From a virus (lineage: Duplodnaviria; Heunggongvirae; Uroviricota; Caudoviricetes): DNA of 47,287 nucleotides. Where the stretch lies: the IMG/VR virus record IMGVR_UViG_2870474514_000002; one strand, 5' to 3'. Shown piece after piece: positions 902-45,735 of the stretch; positions within the stretch are counted from its first letter, which is position 1; each line of letters starts with the position of its first letter. The notes beneath the pieces are model-generated. The model ran no database searches, was not told the DNA's origin, and saw only the letters and a list, made by a program, of their open reading frames with translations. The position numbers and the translations under genes were made by a program.

Positions 902-1510
902 TTATTCACAGGTGATGAGTTCTAATGAATTACACTTCGGTGCTGCTGGCCAATCAACATCAGGTGCAGTTGATGTATCAACACGGTTCAGCAACACCCG
1001 ATACTTCTTCCATGCTGCCAGCAACGACGCCTCTTCTTCCGTTGCGATCTCCAGATCCACAGCATCCTGAAGCGGCGCTATATGCTCACTGGCTACCTGC
1101 ATCAGGCTGTTTTTTGTTTCTTCCGCCTCCCGGATCCGGAACAGTTTTTCTGCTTCTGCATCTTTCACCCAGGCTGTGCCGTTCCACTTCTGAAACTCCC
1201 CTTCCGGGGATAACCAGGTGACATTTTCCGGTAATGGGCCAAGTTCAGAAATAAATAACGCGTCGCCGGAAGCCACGTCATAGACGGTTTTACCCCGATG
1301 GTCTTCAACGAGATGCCACGATGCCTCATCACTGTTGAAAACAGCCACGAAACCAGCCGGAATATCTGGCGGTGCAATATCGGTACTGTTTGCTGGCAGA
1401 CCTGTATGAGGCGGAATATATGCATCACCTTCACCAATAAATTCATTAGTTCCGGACAGCAGATTATAAATTGTTATGGTCCGTGGTTGTTCACTCATTC
1501 TGAATGCCAT
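902..1510 (-). CDS. tfaR: Tail fibre assembly protein (Tfa, lambda/Rac type)
   Basis: 202 aa ORF immediately downstream of stf. C-terminal [20 protein letters not shown] motif typical of Tfa chaperones. Start codon overlaps the stf stop. Confidence 0.85.
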
Positions 1511-27388: not shown

Positions 27389-28846
27389 TTAGGAGCGCCA
27401 AAAAAAACCTGAAAATAATATAATAACAGGATAAATTTCAAGGCGACCAAGAATCATAGCTATGCACATTAAATATTTTGCAATGTCATTAAGCACTCCG
27501 AATGACGATGCAGTAGCCCCAAAACCTAATCCCATATTATTAATACATGCAGCCACTGTTGCAAATGATGTAAGAAAATCATATCCCATACCATTTAACA
27601 CCAGTATAAAAAACACCGTGAAGAGAGTATAAAGAAAAAAGAAACTCCATACAGACCTCATTACACGATCTGTAACTATCTTCCCTCCTACATTTACACT
27701 CAACAACGCTCTGGGATGAGAAAGCTGATTTATCTCGTGTTTGCTTTGTTTGAAAAGTATAAGAAATCGAAGTGACTTAATTCCACCACAAGTTGAACCT
27801 ATACATCCCCCAAAGAAACTTGACAACAGCAAAAATACTATCGTGTGCGTGGGCCAGTTTGCATAATCTTGCGTAGCTAAACCATTATCAGTGAGCATGG
27901 AGCTGGCAAGAAAAAACGAATGAATAAAACTTCCATGCAAGTCATACATACCTATATGCCAGACCTGGAAAGAGGTAACAATGATCACCACTAAGGCTAT
28001 TAACAGAAAGAAACGAAGTTCAATATCTCTGATTAAAGGTTTTATCGTTTTCCTGCTAATAACAATATACCAAAGAGTGAAGTTGAAAGCCGATAGCAGG
28101 GAAAAAGAACCAGCCACCAGCTCAACCAAATAGTTATTAAAATATCCGATACTCTCGCTATGAGTTGAGAAACCACCAAGCGAAACTGTGGAAATCCCGT
28201 GACAAATAGCATCAAACAAAGGCATTCCTGCAAGTCTATAACAGACAATACAAGCAATACCTAATAAAGAATAAGTTATCCACAGTGTCCGTGACGTATC
28301 GGCCAGGCGGGGAGTGAGTTTGTCATCCTTAAATGGCCCCGGCATTTCTGACTGATAAAGCTTTGCACCACCAATACCCAATAATGGCAATACAGCAACC
28401 GCCAGAACAATAACTCCTAAACCACCTATAAAATTTAACTGTGACCGATAGTACAAATATGCCCGAGGTAATGAACTAACATCATCAATTACAGTTGCTC
28501 CTGTTGTTGTTATTCCAGAAACCCCTTCAAAAAGAGCATCAATGAACGTTAAATTAAGTTCTGAGTCAATCCATAAAGGGAATGCACTAATAACAGAAAA
28601 CAAAATCCAAAACATTACAATTATAATAAACCCATCACGGGTACGTAATTGAATGCCAGATTTCTTAGTTGTATACCACGCTCCGCCACCAATGCAAAAA
28701 AATATAACGAAGGTTATAAAGAAAACGAACAGGCTTTTTTCTTTATAAAACAATGCTACAACCATTGGTGGCAACATTGAAAGACTATAGAGCCAAACCA
28801 GGAACCCACACATATGAGTAACAACTCTTACATGAGATGTATTCAT
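27389..28846 (-). CDS. trkG: TrkG/TrkH-family potassium uptake protein
   Basis: 485 aa from MNTSHVRVV, polytopic membrane protein with the repeated glycine selectivity-filter-like motifs of Trk/Ktr transporters (GITTTGATV, SLGGFSTHS). AT-rich relative to the flanking phage genes. Confidence 0.9.
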   Translation of the reverse strand: MNTSHVRVVTHMCGFLVWLYSLSMLPPMVVALFYKEKSLFVFFITFVIFFCIGGGAWYTTKKSGIQLRTRDGFIIIVMFWILFSVISAFPLWIDSELNLTFIDALFEGVSGITTTGATVIDDVSSLPRAYLYYRSQLNFIGGLGVIVLAVAVLPLLGIGGAKLYQSEMPGPFKDDKLTPRLADTSRTLWITYSLLGIACIVCYRLAGMPLFDAICHGISTVSLGGFSTHSESIGYFNNYLVELVAGSFSLLSAFNFTLWYIVISRKTIKPLIRDIELRFFLLIALVVIIVTSFQVWHIGMYDLHGSFIHSFFLASSMLTDNGLATQDYANWPTHTIVFLLLSSFFGGCIGSTCGGIKSLRFLILFKQSKHEINQLSHPRALLSVNVGGKIVTDRVMRSVWSFFFLYTLFTVFFILVLNGMGYDFLTSFATVAACINNMGLGFGATASSFGVLNDIAKYLMCIAMILGRLEIYPVIILFSGFFWRS

Positions 28847-28983
28847 ATCTAAATATTCTTTCAATTATAACCACCTTGCTGCAATATTATGATTATACTG
28901 TATAAAATTTAACTCCTCTTAGATCTTACTTCACTGTTCCTTATGAAACAATCATCAAAATAAATCATATTGTAGTTAAGATT

Positions 28984-29448
28984 TTACTTTAAACACTGTT
29001 CGGTTATGTATTGCTGAGCTCCTTCAAGTTGGGCCTGCATCATTACCAGTCGTTCCCGGAGGGTGAAATAATCCCGTTCAGCGGTGTCTGCCAGTCGGGG
29101 GGATGCTGCATTATCCACGCCGGAGGCGGTGGTGGCTTCACGCACTGACTGACAGACTGCTTTGATGTGCAACCGACGACGACCAGCGGCAACATCATCA
29201 CGCAGAGCATCATTTTCAGCTTTCGCATCAGCTAACTCCTTCGTGTATTTTGCATCGAGCGCAGCAACATCACGCTGACGCATCTGCATGTCAGTAATTG
29301 CCGCGTTCGCCAGCTTCAGTTCTCTGGCATTTTTGTCGCGCTGGGCTTTATAGGTAATGGCGTTATCACGGTAATGATTAACAGCCCATGACAGGCAGAC
29401 GATGATGCAGATAACCAGAGCGGAGATAATCGCGGTTACTCTGTTCAT
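28984..29448 (-). CDS. rzpR: Rz-like i-spanin
   Basis: 154 aa from the ATG at 29448, which forms an ATGA overlap with the endolysin stop. N-terminal transmembrane helix then a coiled-coil periplasmic domain. Confidence 0.8.
29043..29228 (-). CDS. rzoR: Rz1-like o-spanin lipoprotein, embedded in Rz in another frame
   Basis: 61 aa with a lipobox (LVVVGCTSK) and a proline-rich stretch ([10 protein letters not shown]), lying entirely inside Rz. Confidence 0.75.
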
Positions 29449-30935: not shown

Positions 30936-31010
<75 letters not shown>

Positions 31011-31013
31011 ATA

Positions 31014-31089
<76 letters not shown>

Positions 31090-31441: not shown

Positions 31442-31852
31442 TCAAGCCGTTTTTTGAGCGAATGATTCTCGCATGGGAATGTATAGCGCATACTCAGCAA
31501 CGGCCAACCAATTAGCAATTCGCTTTTCGCATGTGCTAAAACACCACTCTGGGTGTGCATCATTTAGCAATTCAGCCATTTTGCGTTTGGTCATCCCCCG
31601 CCCCTCATACCGTTGCCGAAGGACGCTAATCAATCCTGGATGCTCTGCCAGCACCTCACTTATGACTCGATCAATACATAACGCCTCTGCATCAGTACAA
31701 TGCGCCAGCCAGCTCTTTTGCTTGCCGTTGATCATCTCTCTCAAAAACGCTTCCAGCTCAGCTTTCTCTATTCCCGCTTTTTTCATTCTGCGCAGGGCTT
31801 CATTGATGGCTGTTTTCGTCAATTTTTTGGATGCCAACAACTGATTGAACAT
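31442..31852 (-). CDS. Putative late-gene antiterminator (Q-like, by position)
   Basis: About 136 aa from the ATG at 31852 (AGGA SD); the 220 aa track ORF extends into the upstream gene. Last ORF before the late terminator, tRNAs and lysis genes. Not recognisably lambda Q. Confidence 0.4.
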   Translation of the reverse strand: MFNQLLASKKLTKTAINEALRRMKKAGIEKAELEAFLREMINGKQKSWLAHCTDAEALCIDRVISEVLAEHPGLISVLRQRYEGRGMTKRKMAELLNDAHPEWCFSTCEKRIANWLAVAEYALYIPMRESFAQKTA

Positions 31853-31980
31853 ATTTCCTGACCTGCCACCGCCAATATACGACCAGCGCCCCCACATACG
31901 CAGTTTGCCCTGAATCCAGACACTTTCCAGCGTGGCGAGACGAAGGTGTTCTCCGCTTTTTCCTGTATTCGTTGGGTAAA

Positions 31981-32271
31981 TCACAAATATCCCTCCTTTC
32001 TCCAGATTTCTTGTGTGCGAAAAACACCTTCTGCATGCATCAGGCGTAATTCTTCTTTGGTGTAATCGCTGGTTTTTACCCGCCCGTCGATTAGATCGTG
32101 GCATGAGCTACAGGCAATCGCCGCCTGCATATCGTGTGGTTTTGTCGCTGTTCCGCACGTTCCCGCCAGTCGGTAATGCGCCAGCACAGACGTTTCCGGA
32201 TCGTGATTGCAGTAGCCAGGAATTCTGACGGTGCACATCTGCCCCCGCGCCGCTTTACGTAAATCCACCAT
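31981..32271 (-). CDS. YbcO-like small Cys/His-rich protein (putative nin-region nuclease)
   Basis: 96 aa with Cys/His ligands (CTVRIPGYCNHD, CSSCHDLIDGR). ATGA overlap with the upstream gene. Size and composition resemble DLP12 YbcO, recalled from memory. Confidence 0.55.
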   Translation of the reverse strand: MVDLRKAARGQMCTVRIPGYCNHDPETSVLAHYRLAGTCGTATKPHDMQAAIACSSCHDLIDGRVKTSDYTKEELRLMHAEGVFRTQEIWRKEGYL

Positions 32272-32870
32272 TACGCAAACTCCAGCAGCTGCGCGGCCAC
32301 ATTTTCGACTTGTTCCAGAGAGGAAAATTTACGGAACAGAATCCAGTTCCACAGCACATTCAGAACAGATTTATAAACCTGCTGAAACTCGGTTTCGTCC
32401 ATATTCGCAAAAGCGATGGATTTCGCCCGACGCCCATGGCTACCGTCCGGATAAAAATGTTCGGTGTAAAATCCAGCCTGAATGGTTACCCACTCGCGAA
32501 AAGCCTCAAACGACTTTAGCAATGCCGTATCCCGGGTTCTGCGTGTCGCAACTGTATTCAGATATTGCTCTGCGGCATCACTCAGGGCTGGCGTGTGTTC
32601 CCGACCAACTGATTCGCACAGGTAATCAACGAAACCAGACAGCAGTTCTCGTTCGCGAGGCGTGATCGCCCCACCGACCGGAGTCCAGTAATCGAATCCC
32701 AGTTGCAGGAGTTTGAAAAAACGCTTGTGGAATGCGTAGTTACGCACACGCTTAAAATCAGCGTGTATCCACTCGCCTATTTTAATTTGATGCAGAAAAT
32801 CACAACTCTCCGGCGTCGCCGGGAGAAGTAAACCAGAAGAAGTTTGTTTGACCAGTTGTATATGCGCCAT
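32271..32870 (-). CDS. Nin-region phage protein of unknown function
   Basis: 199 aa ORF upstream of the YbcO-like gene, at the boundary of the AT-rich island. Confidence 0.5.
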   Translation of the reverse strand: MAHIQLVKQTSSGLLLPATPESCDFLHQIKIGEWIHADFKRVRNYAFHKRFFKLLQLGFDYWTPVGGAITPRERELLSGFVDYLCESVGREHTPALSDAAEQYLNTVATRRTRDTALLKSFEAFREWVTIQAGFYTEHFYPDGSHGRRAKSIAFANMDETEFQQVYKSVLNVLWNWILFRKFSSLEQVENVAAQLLEFA

Positions 32871-33150
32871 TTCTCAATCTCTCTATGGCGCAGTGCAGCA
32901 GATGCCAGTTGTTCAGGCTGACGAATAAAGTATAAATAAACTGGCTATGGTGTAAAGCCCCACATAGCATGAACAAACACTACATATCAAATAGCTGGTA
33001 CAAGGATAGAAATACGACACTTATTATTAAAAACGATTAGCTAAATTACATTTTAATGTTATGAAAAAGTTCTTTTTTATCATAACATTTCAATAAAAGC
33101 ATTACAGATGCAATCATCCCGTCATCATCAATTATTTAAGGTGGTTAAAC

Positions 33151-33237
33151 ATGGAAAATAACAAGTTTGCACATCTCGCTCCTTTTTTATCCGTAATCCT
33201 TTTCGCTTGTTGTTTTATATGGGCATTATTTTTATAA
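33151..33237 (+). CDS. Candidate small hydrophobic peptide (28 aa)
   Basis: ATG at 33151 with an AAGGTGG SD 6 nt upstream; encodes MENNKFAHLAPFLSVILFACCFIWALFL, one predicted transmembrane helix. In AT-rich sequence about 500 bp upstream of the YeaR-like gene. Hand-translated; not in the ORF track. Confidence 0.3.
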   Translation: MENNKFAHLAPFLSVILFACCFIWALFL

Positions 33238-33742
33238 AGTAGCCACATGATAAGTTGCTGGAATCATGTTTCCCACTCAAGTCATTAACATTTGATTAAG
33301 ACATATCTAAAAGGATGCCTTTACATTATTTGATGCATATATGATTTATTTATATGCACAGTAAAGGCACCCTGGGAATAATCAAGATTAATGATATATT
33401 ACTTATCCTATTCCCAACTGTCTTTTACCTGGGAAAACATTTATCGTTAAAAAATATATCATAAATAATTAAGCTGAAATTTCAGAACACAACTAATGCA
33501 CACAATAAGGTTCAGTAACATTAATCTATGTGGAATACATCGAGATTTCTTGATTAAGCTTTAATAACTTATTCCTAACACACAGAATGCATAAACCAAA
33601 AGCAAAACAAGTAGTTATACGAAAAACAACCATATTTATCCTATCTTCTCCTCTAATCAACATATCAATTATGTGTTTCATAAGAGCTTGACATAACTCC
33701 TCAAAAGGTGCATTTATAATACATGTTTTATAGGAGGTGGTT

Positions 33743-34081
33743 ATGACACACAAGAGAATTCCTAAAGATTGGGTAATCAAACGCTCAACTCCGTTCTTCA
33801 CAAAAGAGAACGTACCTTCAGCGTTATTAACACATCATAATACAGCAGCAGGTGTTTTTGGGCAGTTGTGCGTAATGGAAGGCACTGTAACATATTATGG
33901 TTTTGCTGATGAGAATACTACTGAACCAGAGATAAAAGTAGTTATTAATGCTGGCTCTTTTGCAACAAGCCCACCACAATACTGGCACCGTGTTGAACTA
34001 AGCGATGATGCTCAGTTTAATATTAACTTTTGGGTCGCTCCAGACTTCTCAGGCGAAAAAGTCTATAGCACCAAAAAATAG
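33743..34081 (+). CDS. YeaR-like protein (DUF1971, TehB-associated domain family)
   Basis: 112 aa from the ATG at 33743, with an AGGAGG SD 5 nt upstream. Motifs RSTPFF...P, GVFGQLCVMEGTVTYYGFADE, INAGSFATSPPQYWH and FNINFWVAP match my recollection of E. coli YeaR. Confidence 0.7.
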   Translation: MTHKRIPKDWVIKRSTPFFTKENVPSALLTHHNTAAGVFGQLCVMEGTVTYYGFADENTTEPEIKVVINAGSFATSPPQYWHRVELSDDAQFNINFWVAPDFSGEKVYSTKK

Positions 34082-34110
34082 ATGATCATATTAAAAATAC
34101 TTTAACAATC

Positions 34111-34148
34111 AGACCCGGCAGAGCTATCCTCGACGGGTCTCGTTTTTG
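34111..34148 (+). terminator. Intrinsic terminator-like hairpin after the YeaR-like gene
   Basis: Stem AGACCCG / CGGGTCT with a long loop, followed by CGTTTTTGT; about 30 nt after the stop. Confidence 0.4.
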
Positions 34149-34693
34149 TAAATATTTTGGTTCTACATTGCCAGGAGACTTCGACCATAAGAAGTAATCT
34201 GAATACTTAAGAAATAAATTTACTTCAGATTAATGAGCGCACCTTGCCGGACAAAGATAAGCCAGGCAAACGCTTTTTTTTAGCCAGTATGTAATCAATC
34301 AGAAAGTCGCTCCATAAGAACAACAACAAGGCAATAAATTGCCACCACAGCCACTATTGCTAACGCACACTTCAGAACCAGCACAACAATCTCCTGTTTT
34401 TGACGTATACATACACTGATAAATATGTGGCTTTGTACTCACTACTTCAATACACAAGTGTCAGTGGTGCGTAATCAAATAATACAGTCTGTTTTCAGCC
34501 AGGAACAGACATCAGGTAAAAGAATGAAAAACTATTTTGAGCTACATCATAGCTACAAGATTTCTGCTAATTTCAAGATGAGCAGGTCATTGCTGGCATA
34601 GGTGACCTGCCTATTAGTCATGATGATTCGAAAATTACGGTCGGCATACCATATATAGAAACGTTGTGACACTCTGTTGACGTAATGTAAAAA

Positions 34694-35362
34694 TCATTCC
34701 TGCCCTTCTTCTTTACCGTAGTGGAGTTGACCAATTTTGATAAGAGGGCGTCCCTGGGATTTGCGGTGTAAATTGGTATCGCGAAGTGAATACACGCAAC
34801 CACAATATTCCTGCTGATAGAATTGTTCGCGTTTGCTGATTTCAATCATGCGGGACGAGCCTCCCTGCTTGCGCCAGTTATAATCCCAGTACACCATGCC
34901 CGGATAATGTGCGACAGCTCGCCGTCCGCTGTCGTTAACCTGCTGCATATTTTTCCAGCGTGAAATGCCCAGTGAACTGCTGATCACACTGAAACCATTT
35001 TCAGCGGCGTACAGCGCCGTCCGTTCAAAACGCATGTCAAAACACATAGTACAACGCCTCCCACGTTCGGGCTCCCATTCCATTCCTTTGGCTCGCTCAA
35101 ACCAGTTGTCAGTGTCGTAATCAGCATCGATAAACGGTACACCATGTTGTTCAGCAAATCGAATATTCTCATTCTTACGAATCAAATACTCTTTCTGAGG
35201 ATGAATGTTCGGATTATAGAAGAAGATGGTGTAGTCGATTCCTGAGGCCTGAAGAGCCTCCATCACTTCACCGGAACATGGTGCACAACAAGAGTGCAAT
35301 AGTAGTTTGTTTGCCCCGTTTGGGAGCTCCAACTTAGGACGTTTGAAATCAGCAACTGTCAT
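34694..35362 (-). CDS. QueH-like protein (DUF208, epoxyqueuosine reductase family)
   Basis: 222 aa with the N-terminal [11 protein letters not shown] motif and later Cys motifs ([19 protein letters not shown]) that I associate with DUF208/QueH iron-sulfur enzymes. Confidence 0.7.
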
Positions 35363-35632
35363 AAATGTTTACGTCGGGGTAATGAAACTTGCAAGTTGTG
35401 TAGCATCAGAGTGTACTGCCCCAAAAAGTTGGCAGTTAAACGAGAGGCTACACATTTTGAGCAAGATTTCAAGATCAACTAATCCCCCTTTTTTGAACAG
35501 CGTCCTGATGATACCAATCAGATCGCATTACAATGCCACCTTAGCTGATAAGTCAGTTGATTGTTTCGTCAAAATGCTTCTTAATACTGTAAACTTATTA
35601 CTCCAGCACAGATAACATATAATGAAATAGCC

Positions 35633-35905
35633 ATGAAAATAGACATTAAAAATAAAAATGGGAATACACAACACCTGGACGTGTCATCGTTGATTATTAC
35701 GCTTAATAATGGGGAAACGATTGAAATCACAGATGAAAACAAAAGTCGCCCAATCGATATACCTGAGGGAGTTACAGTGTGGGGAGGCCGGGCTCCCGAT
35801 AAAGAAGCAAGCATAGATCAACTAAAAAAGACAACTCGTAGCATAGGAATATATCCACTAGCCTCCAATATGGTGCACATATTCCCTTATTCTTTAAAAA
35901 AGTAA
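35633..35905 (+). CDS. Hypothetical protein (90 aa)
   Basis: ORF in the AT-rich island with no clear SD and no recognisable motifs; could be non-coding. Confidence 0.3.
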   Translation: MKIDIKNKNGNTQHLDVSSLIITLNNGETIEITDENKSRPIDIPEGVTVWGGRAPDKEASIDQLKKTTRSIGIYPLASNMVHIFPYSLKK

Positions 35906-36041
35906 AATTTTATGTAGCGTTTTAGCAGATACGAAATAAAGAGTGGAACTAAATTTGATTTTAGCGCAGTGCCAGATGAGGCGATGGCTCTGCGCCGTAG
36001 ATACACCAACTTAAACTTGAGCGATTACATTTTGATTTTGC

Positions 36042-36464
36042 TTACCGAATAAATTCCTGGATACTTCCTCGATAAAACATCAGTACACGCTTCATAACTT
36101 CGCTCTTACGGCACTCGCTACAGATTATATTCAGACGCCCGTCATATCGGCGTATTTCTCCGTCTGGTAATGACCAGATAAGGTCAGGATCAACCACAAC
36201 CGTTTTTTTCACCTTTGCCCTGGATAGTTTTTTGCGGGCGTTATTCCAGTCCTTACGAGCCTGTTCAGAGGTAAATAACCCATAGCCAGAGTTGTATACA
36301 TCGCCACTGGCAACCAACTCTCTGGCAAGAATGCTCATCAGATATCTTGTCGCCCCTGTCTTGGCCTCCAGTTGCCTTAACGTCTCGCGCCCACTCTGGC
36401 GTACCAGCTCAACAACCTGCTCCTTAATTTTTTCACGCTCTTCCTGTGTAAAAACTTTTGCCAT
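36042..36464 (-). CDS. Hypothetical phage protein (nin-like region)
   Basis: 140 aa from the ATG at 36464 (MAKVFTQEEREK), with a GGAGG SD 6 nt upstream. Confidence 0.5.
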   Translation of the reverse strand: MAKVFTQEEREKIKEQVVELVRQSGRETLRQLEAKTGATRYLMSILARELVASGDVYNSGYGLFTSEQARKDWNNARKKLSRAKVKKTVVVDPDLIWSLPDGEIRRYDGRLNIICSECRKSEVMKRVLMFYRGSIQEFIR

Positions 36465-36479
36465 AAGCGCCTCCGGCAA

Positions 36480-37241
36480 TCACTTTTCCGACACAATACG
36501 ACTGGAGGAATCGACAATCTGTCGAACAATATCCCGGTGCTTGTTCAGCTCCCGCAGCGCGGCGCAGACACGCTCCCACTTCTGGACATGATTTTTCGCC
36601 CGACGCAGTTCGCGGTTTGCTATATGCAGCGATGGTAAAACCAAGTCATCCGCTTGCGTTTCAGTAAACGATGGCAGCGACTGCACAATGTCCGCCACAG
36701 TTTCTGTTTTAATATCTTCCTGTGTTGCCGCTTCCTGTACTGGTAACGCAGCACCGGCTGGCTGAGGAAAGGCTTTACCATCATTTTTCGTTACCAATGC
36801 AGCTTTCGGTTCTGCTGGTAAATTATCGCCCGGCATGCAGTAACGAAATTTACCGTTCTGATTTACGCGAATCAGACGCCCCTTGCTGATTGCCATTGCC
36901 AGCGTTGAAGCCACTTTGCGTGATGTGGTACCGAACAACGTAGCCAGTTCATCCGCAGTTAGTGGACCACGTTGTTCAATCGTCGCGGTTAAATCGCACT
37001 CCGATATTTTCGTCACTGTTGCTGTGGCGATTTCTTCCGGCTGTTCTTCCGGCACTGGATGTTCCTGCTGAACGTTGTTATCGGCCACACGCCAGGTGTA
37101 TACGCTTTTATCAACGAATCCAGCCTTTTTCAGTTCCCACAGCTCGTTCAGCACTTCTTCACGACTGATATCAAGTCGCGCAGCCAGTTCTACCGACGCG
37201 GCTTTTCCCATTGCTTTCAGTGCATCAAAAACGGTTTCCAT
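36480..37241 (-). CDS. Tandem winged-helix-like protein (possible full-length YdaW)
   Basis: About 253 aa from the ATG at 37241 (GGGAGG SD). Two similar HTH-like segments ([40 protein letters not shown] and [33 protein letters not shown]). Follows ydaV, as ydaW does in K-12. Confidence 0.5.
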
Positions 37242-37263
37242 TAAAATTTCCTCCCGGTAAAAA

Positions 37264-38010
37264 TCACTTCGCAATTCCTAGCTGGACGACATTCGGACGC
37301 CAGCTCTCCCAGTTAAAATTCACCCATCGCCCGCCGTTCATGGTCATGCGATCCATAATCCTCTCGCCGAGCAATGTTTTCATGGCCTCATAGTTCAGGT
37401 TTGTCAGCATCCCCACGCTGCGCATCGACGCTGTCCGGCGATCAACAATCTGGTGCAGCACCACCTGCTCGTTTTTTGTCTCGCGCTGAATGCCAATTTC
37501 ATCAAGAACCAGCAGATCCACTTGGCACAGTTCCCGCAAAAATTTTTCGCCTGATTGCCCGTCGTCATAGCTAGCGTGTAGAGCACTCATGACATCAGCC
37601 ACGGTAACCACAATCACTGTCTGGCCATCTTTCAGCAGGCGATTCCCGATAGCCGCCGCCAGATGGTTTTTTCCGGTACCAGGTTTTCCGCTGAACGCAA
37701 AATTTGTACACCCGGTCATCAGTTCATCAGCGATAGATTTCGCCTGGTTCAACGCATATCGCTGACCGTCGTTCTGCACCTGGTAATTCGCAAACGAGCA
37801 TTTGCGGTGCAATGGCTGGATGCCAGAGCGATTCAGAATTTTTTCCACCCGCAACTGACGATTCTGACGGTTGATCTCCTCACAACGTTTCTGGCCTTCG
37901 GAAAGTTGCCACTCACGCCACTCCGCCACCGTCTTGAATGGCGCGGTTACATGTGACGGGGCCAGTCTGCGGATACGTTCAAGAACGCCGCCTGTCGCAA
38001 TATTTTTCAT
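37264..38010 (-). CDS. ydaV: DnaC-like replication helicase loader
   Basis: 248 aa with Walker [16 protein letters not shown] and Walker B LLVLDEIG. Confidence 0.85.
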
Positions 38011-38016
38011 GGTCAG

Positions 38017-38874
38017 TTACCCCCTGAAGCCTGGCGGGATCGCACTGTCCGGTAACGAAACGGTGTTAACCCGTCGGAGTAACGTCTCAGGTCGAACACC
38101 TTTCGGCGCGAACAAGCCCTGGTATTCGTTGGCGATGCTGTGTCGAATCACCTGCTCAGGTGAAAAACCCTGCTGGCGGAATTTTTCCAGCTCCCGTATC
38201 GCCCCGTTAGCGCCCTGCTCCGTTCGAATCGGTTTACGCAATGCCTGGCGAAATTCAACCCACTCACGCCAAAGCGAGACAGAAATCCAGTTCGGCAAAG
38301 CAATATCCAGAGGGTCAAACTTTTTGACACCTCGATTCCCCCGGGGGGGATTTAGGGGGGGAGCTGTTTTTAGATCTTTATCTGTATCTTTATTAGTTGC
38401 CTTTGTGTTGACATCATGTTCAAACACCACTTCAACATCTGTTTGAACACCTGTTAAATTTCTCTCTTGTTTTGTTTGAACATCTGCTTCCTTTCTGCTT
38501 CTTCTGGCCTGAACAGATGCTTTTCCTGCGGCTGATTTTTTGGTTAATTTTTCCCTGACTGATGCCAGATCTTCCTCAATCCGAAGATGTACCCATTCCT
38601 CGCCGTTATCGCAAAAAAACTCCCGCAAGGATGGTTCAACATCAGCCCATCGCTCGTTAGTCAGACGGGCAATTTTTGCCAGCCTGTTTTTGGGTATTGG
38701 CTTTCCTGTTTGCCAGTAATTGAACATCAGCAACAAATACGCGCCATGCTCCTCTGCTGACAAATGCATGGTGTCAGCCAGGTAATCAGCTATGTACAGT
38801 TGCATGTATGGTAATGCGGCCATAATTGCCCCGTATGATGCTGCCCGGTGGCTTAGAATAAGCACAAACAGCAT
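38017..38874 (-). CDS. ydaU: Replication initiation protein (O-like), YdaU-like
   Basis: 285 aa ORF directly upstream of the DnaC-like gene, with a Lys/Thr/Asp-rich linker. An alternative start exists at 38823. Confidence 0.6.
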   Translation of the reverse strand: MLFVLILSHRAASYGAIMAALPYMQLYIADYLADTMHLSAEEHGAYLLLMFNYWQTGKPIPKNRLAKIARLTNERWADVEPSLREFFCDNGEEWVHLRIEEDLASVREKLTKKSAAGKASVQARRSRKEADVQTKQERNLTGVQTDVEVVFEHDVNTKATNKDTDKDLKTAPPLNPPRGNRGVKKFDPLDIALPNWISVSLWREWVEFRQALRKPIRTEQGANGAIRELEKFRQQGFSPEQVIRHSIANEYQGLFAPKGVRPETLLRRVNTVSLPDSAIPPGFRG

Positions 38875-38886
38875 GGAAACTTTTGC

Positions 38887-39309
38887 TTAATGAACAATGA
38901 CAGAATCGTCGGAAGACCCGCCGCCGCTGAAATGCGCTTTCCGGTAAACGGCCTGGACTGCATCATCATGCGCATCAATTGCCGTACTTAACGCTTCCTG
39001 CGCCGCCAGTAATGCACGGCGTTCCAGGGTATCGAAGATGCAGAGTCGGTGACGCAGCTCGCGCGGAAGGATTGCCAGAATTGCAGGGATCAGTTTCTGA
39101 ATTTTTTCCCTTTGCGCTTCCGTTTCACCTTTTAACCAACGGTGATAGATGTTCTGCTGATTATTCCAGTCCTTGCCTGGTACCAGGGGCAATTCGCCGC
39201 CCCCCTGGCGCAGATATTCTTCAGTAATGGCATTGGCTACCCATGCCTGCCCTTTTTCGGCTGCCAGGGCTAACAACACTGACTCGATGTGCTCATGCTT
39301 GATTTTCAT
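38887..39309 (-). CDS. ydaT: YdaT-like protein (CII-like regulator / cryptic toxin)
   Basis: 140 aa ORF immediately downstream of the Cro-like ydaS homologue, overlapping it by 4 nt. Confidence 0.7.
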   Translation of the reverse strand: MKIKHEHIESVLLALAAEKGQAWVANAITEEYLRQGGGELPLVPGKDWNNQQNIYHRWLKGETEAQREKIQKLIPAILAILPRELRHRLCIFDTLERRALLAAQEALSTAIDAHDDAVQAVYRKAHFSGGGSSDDSVIVH

Positions 39310-39560
39310 GAATCAACTCCCATCAGCTTTTTCGTAGTAGTTTTATTTCTGCCAATAGTTAAAATCACATCGGCAGAAAATAATCCGTTTGATGCATGAG
39401 CGATTTTTTCAGCGTAATTTGTTTCGCCGGTATATTCTGTGCGAGGCAATTTTCCGTTATCCATCCATTTGTAGATTGCTCTTTGGCTGACACCACAAAC
39501 GTCGGCCACAACAGAAACGCGAACAGTTTTGATTACATCTTCAAGTGTTTTCTGGTTCAT
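39306..39560 (-). CDS. ydaS: Cro-like HTH regulator YdaS
   Basis: 84 aa from the ATG at 39560 (GAGGGTGA SD); HTH segment VADVCGVSQRAIYKWMDNGKLP. Divergent from racR. Confidence 0.7.
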   Translation of the reverse strand: MNQKTLEDVIKTVRVSVVADVCGVSQRAIYKWMDNGKLPRTEYTGETNYAEKIAHASNGLFSADVILTIGRNKTTTKKLMGVDS

Positions 39561-45359: not shown

Positions 45360-45554
45360 ATGAGATATGACAATGTTAAACCATGTCCATTTTGTGGTTG
45401 TCCATCAGTAACGGTGAAAGCCATTTCAGGATATTACCGAGCGAAGTGTAACGGATGCGAATCCCGAACCGGTTATGGTGGAAGTGAAAAAGAAGCACTC
45501 GAAAGATGGAATAAACGAACCACTGGAAATAATAATGGAGGTGTTCATGTATAA
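45360..45554 (+). CDS. ralR: Restriction alleviation protein RalR (Lar)
   Basis: 64 aa: MRYDNVKPCPFCGCPSVTVKAISGYYRAKCNGCESRTGYGGSEKEALERWNKRTTGNNNGGVHV, with a CxxC...CxxC zinc ribbon. Confidence 0.85.
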   Translation: MRYDNVKPCPFCGCPSVTVKAISGYYRAKCNGCESRTGYGGSEKEALERWNKRTTGNNNGGVHV

Positions 45555-45735
45555 AATTACCGCCACTATTGAAAAGGAAGGTGGCACTCCTACTAACTGG
45601 ACAAGATATTCAAAATATAAACTAACTAAATCAGAATGCGAAAAAATGCTCTCAGGTAAAAAAGAAGCAGGCGTTTCCAGAGAGCAGAAAGTAAAACTGA
45701 TAAATTTTAATTGCGAGAAACTTCAGTCCTCGTGA
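45547..45735 (+). CDS. ydaC: YdaC-like small protein
   Basis: 62 aa from MYKITATIEK, with a GGAGG SD 5 nt upstream; overlaps the ralR stop by 8 nt. An alternative start lies 4 codons upstream. Confidence 0.55.
   Translation: MYKITATIEKEGGTPTNWTRYSKYKLTKSECEKMLSGKKEAGVSREQKVKLINFNCEKLQSS

Follow-up and report, generated by a model that had tools for sequence, protein, structure and literature searches.

Why does a temperate phage of Escherichia coli carry an enzyme of queuosine synthesis when its host always has its own, and why does a gene of the poorly characterized DUF1971 family stand next to it on the opposite strand? The question is raised by a 47,287-base stretch of DNA, the IMG/VR virus record IMGVR_UViG_2870474514_000002 (the window, in what follows, is this whole stretch). 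Its positions 32871-35910 hold a queH gene (34694..35362, minus strand) and a DUF1971 gene (33743..34081, plus strand). A first-pass annotation, made from the letters of the same DNA, had read this region as one AT-rich island of two non-phage genes. The best explanation overall, and a likely one, is a cargo slot in the early-right (nin) region, bounded by DUF977 (Ren-like) and ninB (DUF1367), whose cassettes were acquired separately. More tentatively, the QueH of this early operon, present in ~18% of complete E. coli genomes, would uncouple queuosine maturation from host B12, and a moron in the same slot would be wired into the NsrR/nitric oxide (NO) regulon.

By sequence comparison, the window is 100% identical to part of the chromosome of E. 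coli AR436, and its RefSeq annotation, with 56 annotated features, describes a complete Rac-like lambdoid prophage. The genes intR, xisR, ralR, RalA, recT, recE, kilR, ydaF, a divergent repressor pair, ydaT, ydaU, and ydaV are followed by DUF1627, DUF977 (Ren-like, phrog_142), the cargo region, and DUF1367 (NinB-like, phrog_319). After these come DUF1364, a DUF1133/Q-like antiterminator, tRNA-Thr, tRNA-Gly, the lysis genes, trkG, a ParB-like gene, and the terminase, head, and tail genes. All prophage genes from the cro-like gene through the tail fibers lie on the minus strand; hence, a cargo gene on this strand is sense, and one on the plus strand antisense, to the early-right transcript.

Cassettes in the DUF977-ninB slot

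Among 5,426 complete E. coli genomes, queH is found in 995 (18%; 43 with the allele of the window, 952 with an allele at 90-95% identity), the DUF1971 gene in 458 (8%), and the whole island in 43. The two genes are thus distributed independently, and the island is a mosaic of cassettes, not the single unit first proposed. A functional coupling of QueH and DUF1971 is likewise unsupported, as 43 shared genomes stand against 995 and 458.

The boundaries of the cassettes are visible in alignments. The spacer beside ninB (32871..33240), which forms the left boundary of the DUF1971 cassette, matches ~330 E. coli genomes (76-78% identity), none of which has an annotated feature there, and is homologous to the ninB-hokD interval of hokD-bearing lambdoid prophages. 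In the alignment with WEC and AST215, the homology stops near 33240-33310, where their hokD lies. On the other side, 34284-34690 corresponds to the spacer that separates queH from hokD in strain HZ13, with homology up to the start of the hok locus. With breakpoints at ~33240 and ~34283, a DUF1971 cassette of ~1 kb therefore occupies the hokD position of a DUF977-QueH-hokD-NinB arrangement. Another insertion, on the other side of queH next to DUF977, brought in the orphan gene ORF90.

This arrangement is widespread. DUF977 and then queH, on the same strand and directly adjacent, are found in 75 of the 80 IMG/VR viral loci compared, with hokD next in 66; the layout of the window (DUF977, ORF90 in antisense, QueH, DUF1971 in antisense, NinB) is found in three. 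The queH slot is shared by several lambdoid backbones: Rac-like, Qin-like, and that of the isolated phage HannyBb, which carries queH at the same place. The content of the slot varies across prophages and includes hokD, a tetratricopeptide repeat (TPR) protein with DUF262, DUF1971, ORF90, and a methyltransferase fragment. In a sibling Rac-like prophage of E. coli 2017-03-3CC (locus L005, 6731-9990), the DUF1971 module is kept, and TPR + DUF262 replace queH and ORF90. With such a defense-like pair in the slot, the DUF977-ninB interval behaves as a cargo or defense hot-spot.

The composition agrees only in part with the first description. The GC content of 32871-35910 is 38.4%, compared to 49.5% in both flanks (31442-32870 and 36042-39560) and 47.5% in the whole window, and the region as such is indeed AT-rich. 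The low value is due to the spacers (31-38%), the DUF1971 gene (40%), and ORF90 (38%); queH itself, with 47.4%, equals the window mean and is not AT-rich. Annotated genes are absent from ~60% of 32871-36041, the stretch between the flanking phage genes, which bears out the long non-coding stretches of the first-pass annotation except for two conserved small open reading frames (sORFs) inside them. The two genes on opposite strands are present as described, together with a third annotated gene, ORF90; this gene, the two sORFs, and an NsrR-type operator had been overlooked. Furthermore, queH and the DUF1971 gene are no strangers to phages. Each is represented by a PHROG family and named by the Prokaryotic Genome Annotation Pipeline (PGAP), both are common in lambdoid prophages, and they thus belong to the lambdoid prophage gene pool.

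QueH, a probable early-operon duplicate of a host function

The hidden Markov model search supports both family assignments. The product of queH (epoxyqueuosine reductase QueH, 222 amino acids, WP_001595668.1) matches PF02677 (DUF208) with 221.5 bits (cut-off 23.5) over profile positions 1-174 of 175, and the DUF1971 protein matches PF09313 with 91.8 bits (cut-off 23.1) over positions 1-80 of 80. Compared to the known members of the QueH family, reportedly defined by Zallot et al. in 2017 (cited in PMC5372724 and PMC6461909) and represented by the Thermotoga maritima structures 7lc5, 7lc7, and 9deu, the match is full-length, and all conserved Cys/His columns are kept. Similarity to 7lc5 (E = 3e-22) covers residues 20-196 against chain residues 4-178. 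An alignment of 13 sequences was made, including T. maritima, four homologues of 31-51% identity from phage-labelled contigs, and the chromosomal QueH of seven Enterobacterales. In it, H23, C25, C26, C104, C107, C187, and C189 are invariant. The Cys motifs noted earlier, including CGC, are thereby confirmed in the translation, and we take H-x-CC-x-x-C/D, C-x-x-C, and C-x-C to be the metal-ligand residues. At position 29, the window protein has a Cys in place of Asp13 of the crystallized T. maritima enzyme. A reading of CCAPC versus CCAPD as a mark of divergence from the characterized QueH was discarded, as 12 of the 13 sequences have Cys, the majority state, and only T. maritima has Asp.

The window QueH is 80-86% identical to the chromosomal QueH of Erwinia, Providencia, Proteus, Photorhabdus, Gibbsiella, and Arsenophonus. 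It is a housekeeping-type enzyme captured from an Enterobacterales chromosome and not a divergent paralogue. Between prophage queH alleles, the ratio of nonsynonymous to synonymous substitution rates (dN/dS) is 0.03-0.06, at a dS of 0.27-0.44, and none of the 27 alleles in the 80 IMG/VR loci is broken by a stop codon. Codons 1-33, which include the CCAPC motif, show 16 synonymous versus 2 nonsynonymous variants. This pattern rules out Met34, where the PHROG profile begins, as the true start. The gene is intact and, as we conclude, encodes a working QueH, with a catalytic activity predicted from homology.

The PHROG profile for QueH, phrog_3217, begins at residue 34, past the CCAPC metal-binding motif, and the annotation of phage HannyBb (locus L002, 5980-6724) gives queH as two hypothetical proteins. 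Phage queH annotations hence seem to be often N-terminally truncated or unnamed.

Known QueH proteins differ from this one in their setting: the window gene sits in the early-right operon, in temperate phages of a host that always has QueG. Since queG is found without exception in the complete E. coli genomes (5,426 of 5,426), the phage-borne QueH duplicates an existing step in every case and never supplies a missing one. The same count shows that strains with queH have not had their queG replaced by non-orthologous displacement. The two enzymes are a textbook case of one step catalyzed by non-orthologous proteins, and E. coli is unable to make cobalamin de novo. QueG requires cobalamin (PMC4646009, PMC5175355) and is counted among the four cobamide-dependent enzymes of E. 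coli (PMC11841063), whereas QueH is the cobamide-independent alternative (PMC6461909, PMC5372724). With QueG in every E. coli, the sole possible addition of QueH is queuosine maturation without imported B12. By homology, QueH would reduce epoxyqueuosine-34 (oQ) to queuosine-34 (Q) in host tRNA Asp, Asn, His, and Tyr, and the most economical reading is that it would make this step independent of imported B12. The idea that the prophage alters host tRNA modification has to be narrowed accordingly in scope: QueH adds no new activity and can only lift the cobalamin requirement. Staphylococcus aureus also has both QueG and QueH, with differing expression profiles, which the authors of that study read as a response to cofactor availability (PMC13443448).

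A link between QueH and the tRNA genes of the prophage had been suggested as well. Queuosine is confined to GUN-anticodon tRNAs, namely Asp, Asn, His, and Tyr (PMC9508795). The prophage genes, at 30936-31089 (minus strand) between the Q-like antiterminator and the lysis genes, encode tRNA-Gly(UCC) and tRNA-Thr(UGU); these carry no queuosine, and the link therefore fails. In other queH-bearing prophages (locus L003), Thr and Ile tRNAs lie at the equivalent place.

The homology between queH alleles is limited to 34690-35411, that is, the reading frame and ~49 nucleotides upstream. This conserved leader (35363..35411, minus strand) travels with queH and contains TGCTACACT in most alleles, resembling an extended -10 element, and TGCTACACA in the window. 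As a candidate promoter, the element is a lead only. A sigma-70 promoter scan gave site counts at or below chance, with nothing convincing for queH or ORF90. No terminator-like site is predicted on the minus strand between DUF977 and queH; the two minus-strand matches in the scanned stretch fall further upstream, inside ydaV and ydaU, and the total number of matches is at chance level. Directly after the queH stop codon, no stable hairpin was found. With no terminator predicted on either side, no consensus promoter, and a sense orientation, queH behaves like a member of the early-right operon and not like a moron, and its GC content points the same way. The queH cassette (~34284-35411) would include the small sORF29, and its enzyme would most likely be made at least during lytic development, via the early-right transcript. 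It may thus act in the lytic cycle, as a delayed-early gene, either instead of or in addition to a role in lysogenic conversion.

A probable DUF1971 moron and its candidate NsrR operator

The DUF1971 gene (33743..34081, plus strand) encodes a protein of 112 amino acids (WP_001326322.1, phrog_34268) of the YeaR/TehB-N-terminal-domain family. Immediately upstream lies a candidate NsrR-type operator, AAGGTGCATTTATAATACATGTT (33705..33727), an 11-1-11 inverted repeat. It was scored with a symmetrized weight matrix built from 26 distinct published sites of strain CFT073 (PMC5320621, Table 4). The operator reaches 25.2 bits and would be second among the 26 published sites; the next-best NsrR-type site of the window has 11.8 bits. 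None of 500 composition-matched random islands, first-order Markov sequences that differ from the genomic background, reached this value (maximum 22.6). The left half of the operator is identical to that of the ygbA site, and its right half matches the hcp site at 9 of 11 positions.

The position of the site is also that of a repressor target. The -35 hexamer TTGACA (33688..33693, plus strand), invariant in the prophage copies, ends 11 nucleotides before the operator, the same geometry as that of TTTACA in Kluyvera orthologues. The operator lies between TTGACA and the Shine-Dalgarno (SD) sequence and covers every candidate -10 hexamer, which gives it a repressor-like geometry. It is kept in 36 of 36 prophage copies having upstream sequence, through 9 variants of 17.7-29 bits and at 15 nucleotides from the ATG in 34 of them, a count of closely related and, thus, not independent copies.

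The chromosomal orthologues give a broader footprint. Of 80 loci with 75-97% identity, 54 have an NsrR site of at least 18 bits, usually a near-perfect palindrome of 28-30 bits, and these 54 comprise essentially all Enterobacteriaceae loci of the set. The distance to the ATG is 15-27 nucleotides in 53 of them and 43 in one Photobacterium (L063). In control windows of 253 nucleotides from the same loci, the best NsrR-type site averages 0.8 bits. The Kluyvera, Citrobacter, and Klebsiella orthologues, for example, have near-consensus AAGATGYATWTTAAATRCATCTT palindromes of 28-30 bits. Among the 26 loci without such a site, 20 have DUF1971 downstream of norV, 19 also with norW, and in 14 loci, DUF1971 lies less than 400 nucleotides after norW. 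The NorV and NorW assignments reach 978 and 564 bits against the NCBIfam equivalogs. By either route, NsrR site or norVW neighborhood, 74 of the 80 orthologues are linked to NO.

The same-strand order norV-norW-DUF1971 is seen in 20 loci of Vibrio, Photobacterium, Shewanella, Aliivibrio, and Agarivorans (e.g., L065, 294-3339), an apparent operon without an NsrR site, in which norV encodes the anaerobic NO reductase and norW the reductase that serves it. Four further loci (L070, L076, L082, and L083; Neptunomonas, Parendozoicomonas, and Vibrio sp. EA2) have no NsrR-type site directly upstream of DUF1971 but carry 20-24-bit NsrR-type sites elsewhere within 3 kb; there, DUF1971 may lie further down in an operon that NsrR controls. 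With 75-80% identity, the norVW-linked genes found in Vibrionaceae and Shewanella are orthologous to the prophage gene but differ from it in both their position after norV-norW and the missing site. The prophage copy of DUF1971 stems from the stand-alone form under NsrR control that is typical of Enterobacteriaceae.

In E. coli, the related yeaR is an NsrR target, induced ~160-fold under nitrate/NO conditions (PMC5320621). Taken together, the conserved operator, the norVW linkage, and the yeaR precedent predict NsrR repression and NO induction of the DUF1971 gene in a lysogen: the host NsrR, an [Fe-S] NO sensor, would repress the moron, and nitric oxide would de-repress it. The subfamily is predicted to be tied to NO stress across Gammaproteobacteria, with the prophage copy wired into the host NsrR regulon. 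As in the known members of this regulon (ytfE, hmp, hcp-hcr, ygbA, and yeaR-yoaG), the 11-1-11 repeat matches the published motif and overlaps the -10 region. This predicted target differs in being prophage-borne and missing from K-12 and most strains.

The start codon has to be corrected from the GTG at 33737 to the ATG at 33743, according to PGAP and the alignment to PDB 3dl3. The AGGAGG SD sequence (33732..33737, plus strand) and the terminator of the first-pass annotation are both there. The SD lies 5 nucleotides before the ATG, and the intrinsic terminator (34107..34150, plus strand) consists of a GACCCGG...CGGGTC hairpin, followed by the T-run of TCGTTTTTGT. The hairpin (34107-34144) has a folding energy of -15.4 kcal/mol (z = -3.13; 1 of 200 shuffles equally stable). 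Another hairpin with a T8 run, at 34235-34281, is weaker (z = -1.1).

This cassette (~33240-34283), on the strand opposite to phage early transcription, would be a textbook moron: a -35 hexamer and an operator over the -10 region of a predicted promoter, an SD, a terminator, 40% GC, and an antisense orientation to the phage operon. The moron claim thus stands for DUF1971, with its classic anatomy, and falls for queH, which has none of it. Lambdoid morons such as lambda bor and lom and Rac trkG share the promoter-like elements, SD, terminator, deviant GC, and opposite strand; unlike them, the DUF1971 promoter bears a predicted operator for a host stress sensor.

The YeaR-like label is correct at the family level (YeaR structure 3bb6, E = 3e-25), but the closer subfamily is that of PDB 3dl3 (E = 3e-59). 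Both YeaR, whose yeaR-yoaG operon is regulated by NsrR and NarL, and the prophage protein belong to the same Pfam family and have an NsrR-type operator upstream. In the prophage, however, the operator lies 15 nucleotides from the ATG, compared to 66 in K-12 yeaR, and the gene is monocistronic, with its own terminator and without a yoaG partner. No gene is annotated downstream on the plus strand, and the only nearby plus-strand ORF (34425-34601) has no significant match in a Pfam search, to YoaG (DUF1869) or any other family. The N-terminal domain of Haemophilus influenzae TehB (3m70, E = 2e-10) is homologous as well. Against the TehB model NF008992 of NCBIfam, residues 16-111 score 48.4 bits (cut-off 303) over profile positions 11-106 of 289, and a protein of 112 amino acids has no methyltransferase domain. 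The protein is therefore not TehB, and the PGAP label "TehB family protein" on some DUF1971 copies overstates what is known.

Other genes, rival explanations, and meaning

The third annotated gene, ORF90 (35633..35905, plus strand; 90 amino acids, WP_000686865.1), points away from queH and runs antisense to the early-right operon. Its family comprises 14 protein clusters of ~90 amino acids each with 36 invariant columns, and its relatives are limited to Escherichia, Citrobacter, and Enterobacter. No match was found in Pfam, PHROG, NCBIfam, or PADLOC, and the AlphaFold model (predicted local distance difference test score 48.5, predicted template modelling score 0.30) is too poor for a fold search.

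Two hydrophobic sORFs, both unannotated in RefSeq and without a Pfam match, flank the DUF1971 cassette. sORF28 (MENNKFAHLAPFLSVILFACCFIWALFL; 33151..33237, plus strand, TAAGGTG SD) is intact in 50 of 50 loci, always with 28 amino acids and the SD retained, through 8 nucleotide alleles and 6 peptide variants; the loci include hokD-bearing prophages at ~77% nucleotide identity. The peptide could be a toxin or a small protein of the membrane. sORF29 (MLVLKCALAIVAVVAIYCLVVVLMERLSD; 34295..34384, minus strand, GTG start, AGGAG SD) encodes 29 amino acids downstream of queH. All 44 of the 44 loci have it intact, with fixed length and retained SD, and its 11 alleles show 13 synonymous variants versus 9 nonsynonymous ones, which are mostly conservative. 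The sibling prophage without queH has sORF29 as well. An origin as a hok remnant was rejected: BLASTP gives no alignment to HokD, and HZ13 carries both sORF29 and hokD. ORF90, sORF28, and sORF29 would be conserved passengers.

Elsewhere in the window, trkG (27389-28846, minus strand), a potassium transporter gene and known Rac moron, has the lysis genes on one side and the ParB-like/terminase genes on the other and falls within another AT-rich patch (32-40% GC across 27501-29000). The RalR/RalA type I toxin-antitoxin pair is located at 45360-45735; the RalA small RNA (RF02694, 217 bits, minus strand) lies opposite ralR and overlaps a DUF1187 ORF. A full-length match to IS009 (RF02111, 218.9 bits; 969-1167, minus strand) sits in an AT-rich stretch (33-34% GC, 1-1000) and overlaps the annotated tail-fiber assembly gene 902-1510. 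These two RNAs and the two tRNAs are the only matches of a gathering-threshold Rfam scan of the window, all outside the island; within 32700-36150, no Rfam match was found even at E <= 1.

How the slot is to be read depends on which of these observations an explanation can accommodate. One AT-rich island acquired as such, with two non-phage morons and a QueH for lysogenic conversion tied to the prophage tRNAs, has in its favor the overall AT richness, the correct gene identities, and the presence of two tRNA genes. This explanation is unlikely: it is already contradicted by the tRNAs, which are no queuosine substrates, and by the independent distribution of the genes, and it fits neither the average GC of queH, nor its sense orientation without a promoter/terminator pair of its own, nor a host that always has queG. 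That the cargo genes are neutral or decaying passengers of a recombination-prone slot, silenced, e.g., by H-NS, and inert in E. coli, would agree with the variable slot content, with a QueH that duplicates a universal host gene, and with neighbors that are sometimes pseudogenized, such as a frameshifted DUF977. Yet the purifying selection on queH without a broken allele, the operator that stays a good site through all nine variants, the intact sORFs, and the prevalence of 18% and 8% make such inertness quite improbable. The palindrome upstream of DUF1971 could also be the site of another regulator or an AT-rich promoter element, as it is AT-rich, contains TATAAT, and was predicted from sequence with the matrix of a single study. 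It outscores 25 of the 26 published NsrR sites, though, while standing outside the training set, and matches the half-sites of ygbA and hcp in whole or in large part; its orthologues have strong palindromes or, where they have none, sit in norVW operons, and its paralogue yeaR is an established target (PMC5320621). A non-NsrR site is, therefore, rather improbable.

Another possibility, which we hold with real doubt, is that QueH serves the phage: expressed from the early-right operon after induction or infection, it would complete Q34 on host tRNAs regardless of B12, tuning the decoding of NAY codons or avoiding a disadvantage of oQ-tRNA while phage proteins are made. The fixed slot and sense orientation in 75 of 80 loci over several lambdoid backbones, the lack of a predicted terminator upstream, and the strong purifying selection within prophage lineages speak for it. 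On the other hand, tRNA modification turnover is perhaps too slow within one lytic cycle, a decoding difference between oQ and Q is nowhere documented, and the ~49-nucleotide leader, with its extended -10-like TGnTACACT, could give constitutive expression in the lysogen instead. Such a benefit is compatible with the proposed B12 independence of queuosine maturation and differs solely in the beneficiary. A role of QueH beyond tRNA, in 7-deazaguanine modification of phage DNA or in counter-defense, is very improbable. Phages do use queuosine-pathway enzymes to modify their own DNA (PMC6884629, PMC10516641), but the 56 annotated features of the prophage include no Tgt/DpdA, QueC, QueD, QueE, or FolE homologue, which makes such a role unlikely, and the protein is close to housekeeping QueH. 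Neither QueH, DUF1971, nor ORF90 matches a PADLOC defense model.

Several points weigh against a QueH that frees queuosine maturation from B12 and a moron controlled by NsrR, in addition to the Markov background and the relatedness of the prophage copies mentioned above. The matrix rests on predicted and chromatin immunoprecipitation-supported sites of one strain. The perfect TATAAT (33715-33720) lies 21 nucleotides from TTGACA, a non-optimal spacing that leaves the working -10 and the transcription start uncertain, every candidate still falling within the operator. For queH, the promoter scan found no consensus sigma-70 promoter. We know of no physiological phenotype reported for oQ- versus Q-tRNA. 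Moreover, deletion of queG left growth unchanged in one tested setting (PMC11841063), so that the benefit of QueH could be negligible. The sequence comparisons show the gene identities with their conservation, selection, and distribution, the boundaries of the mosaic, and the presence of the operator with its phylogenetic footprint; we infer the activity of QueH in E. coli, the binding of NsrR and regulation of the genes, the timing of expression, and any fitness benefit.

Both families are known, both genes are common and already carry RefSeq/PGAP names, and the current understanding is not overturned. The literature search found no paper on prophage-borne QueH in E. coli, on this DUF1971 gene, or on their WP accessions. 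What is new is that phages conserve a B12-independent duplicate of a tRNA-modification step which their host can always perform; that a prophage moron has a candidate operator for the host NO sensor; and an assignment of the DUF1971 subfamily to NO stress, which is firm as far as regulatory sites and gene neighborhoods can predict it. In practice, some phage resources appear to mis-annotate queH, and two conserved sORFs are missing from the RefSeq annotation.

For the family, the result gives DUF1971 a physiological address, NO stress, in 74 of 80 orthologues, and its prophage cassette would be a moron that has joined a stress regulon of the host by way of a captured operator. The strong purifying selection on phage QueH in spite of a universal QueG is evidence from nature that being able to complete queuosine without B12 is worth retaining; if so, a phage-encoded enzyme would edit the modification state of host tRNAs. 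If both parts are true, NO, a signal of the inflamed gut, would switch prophage cargo on, and the slot would be a niche-adaptation module for B12-poor, NO-rich settings and not a place of random passengers.

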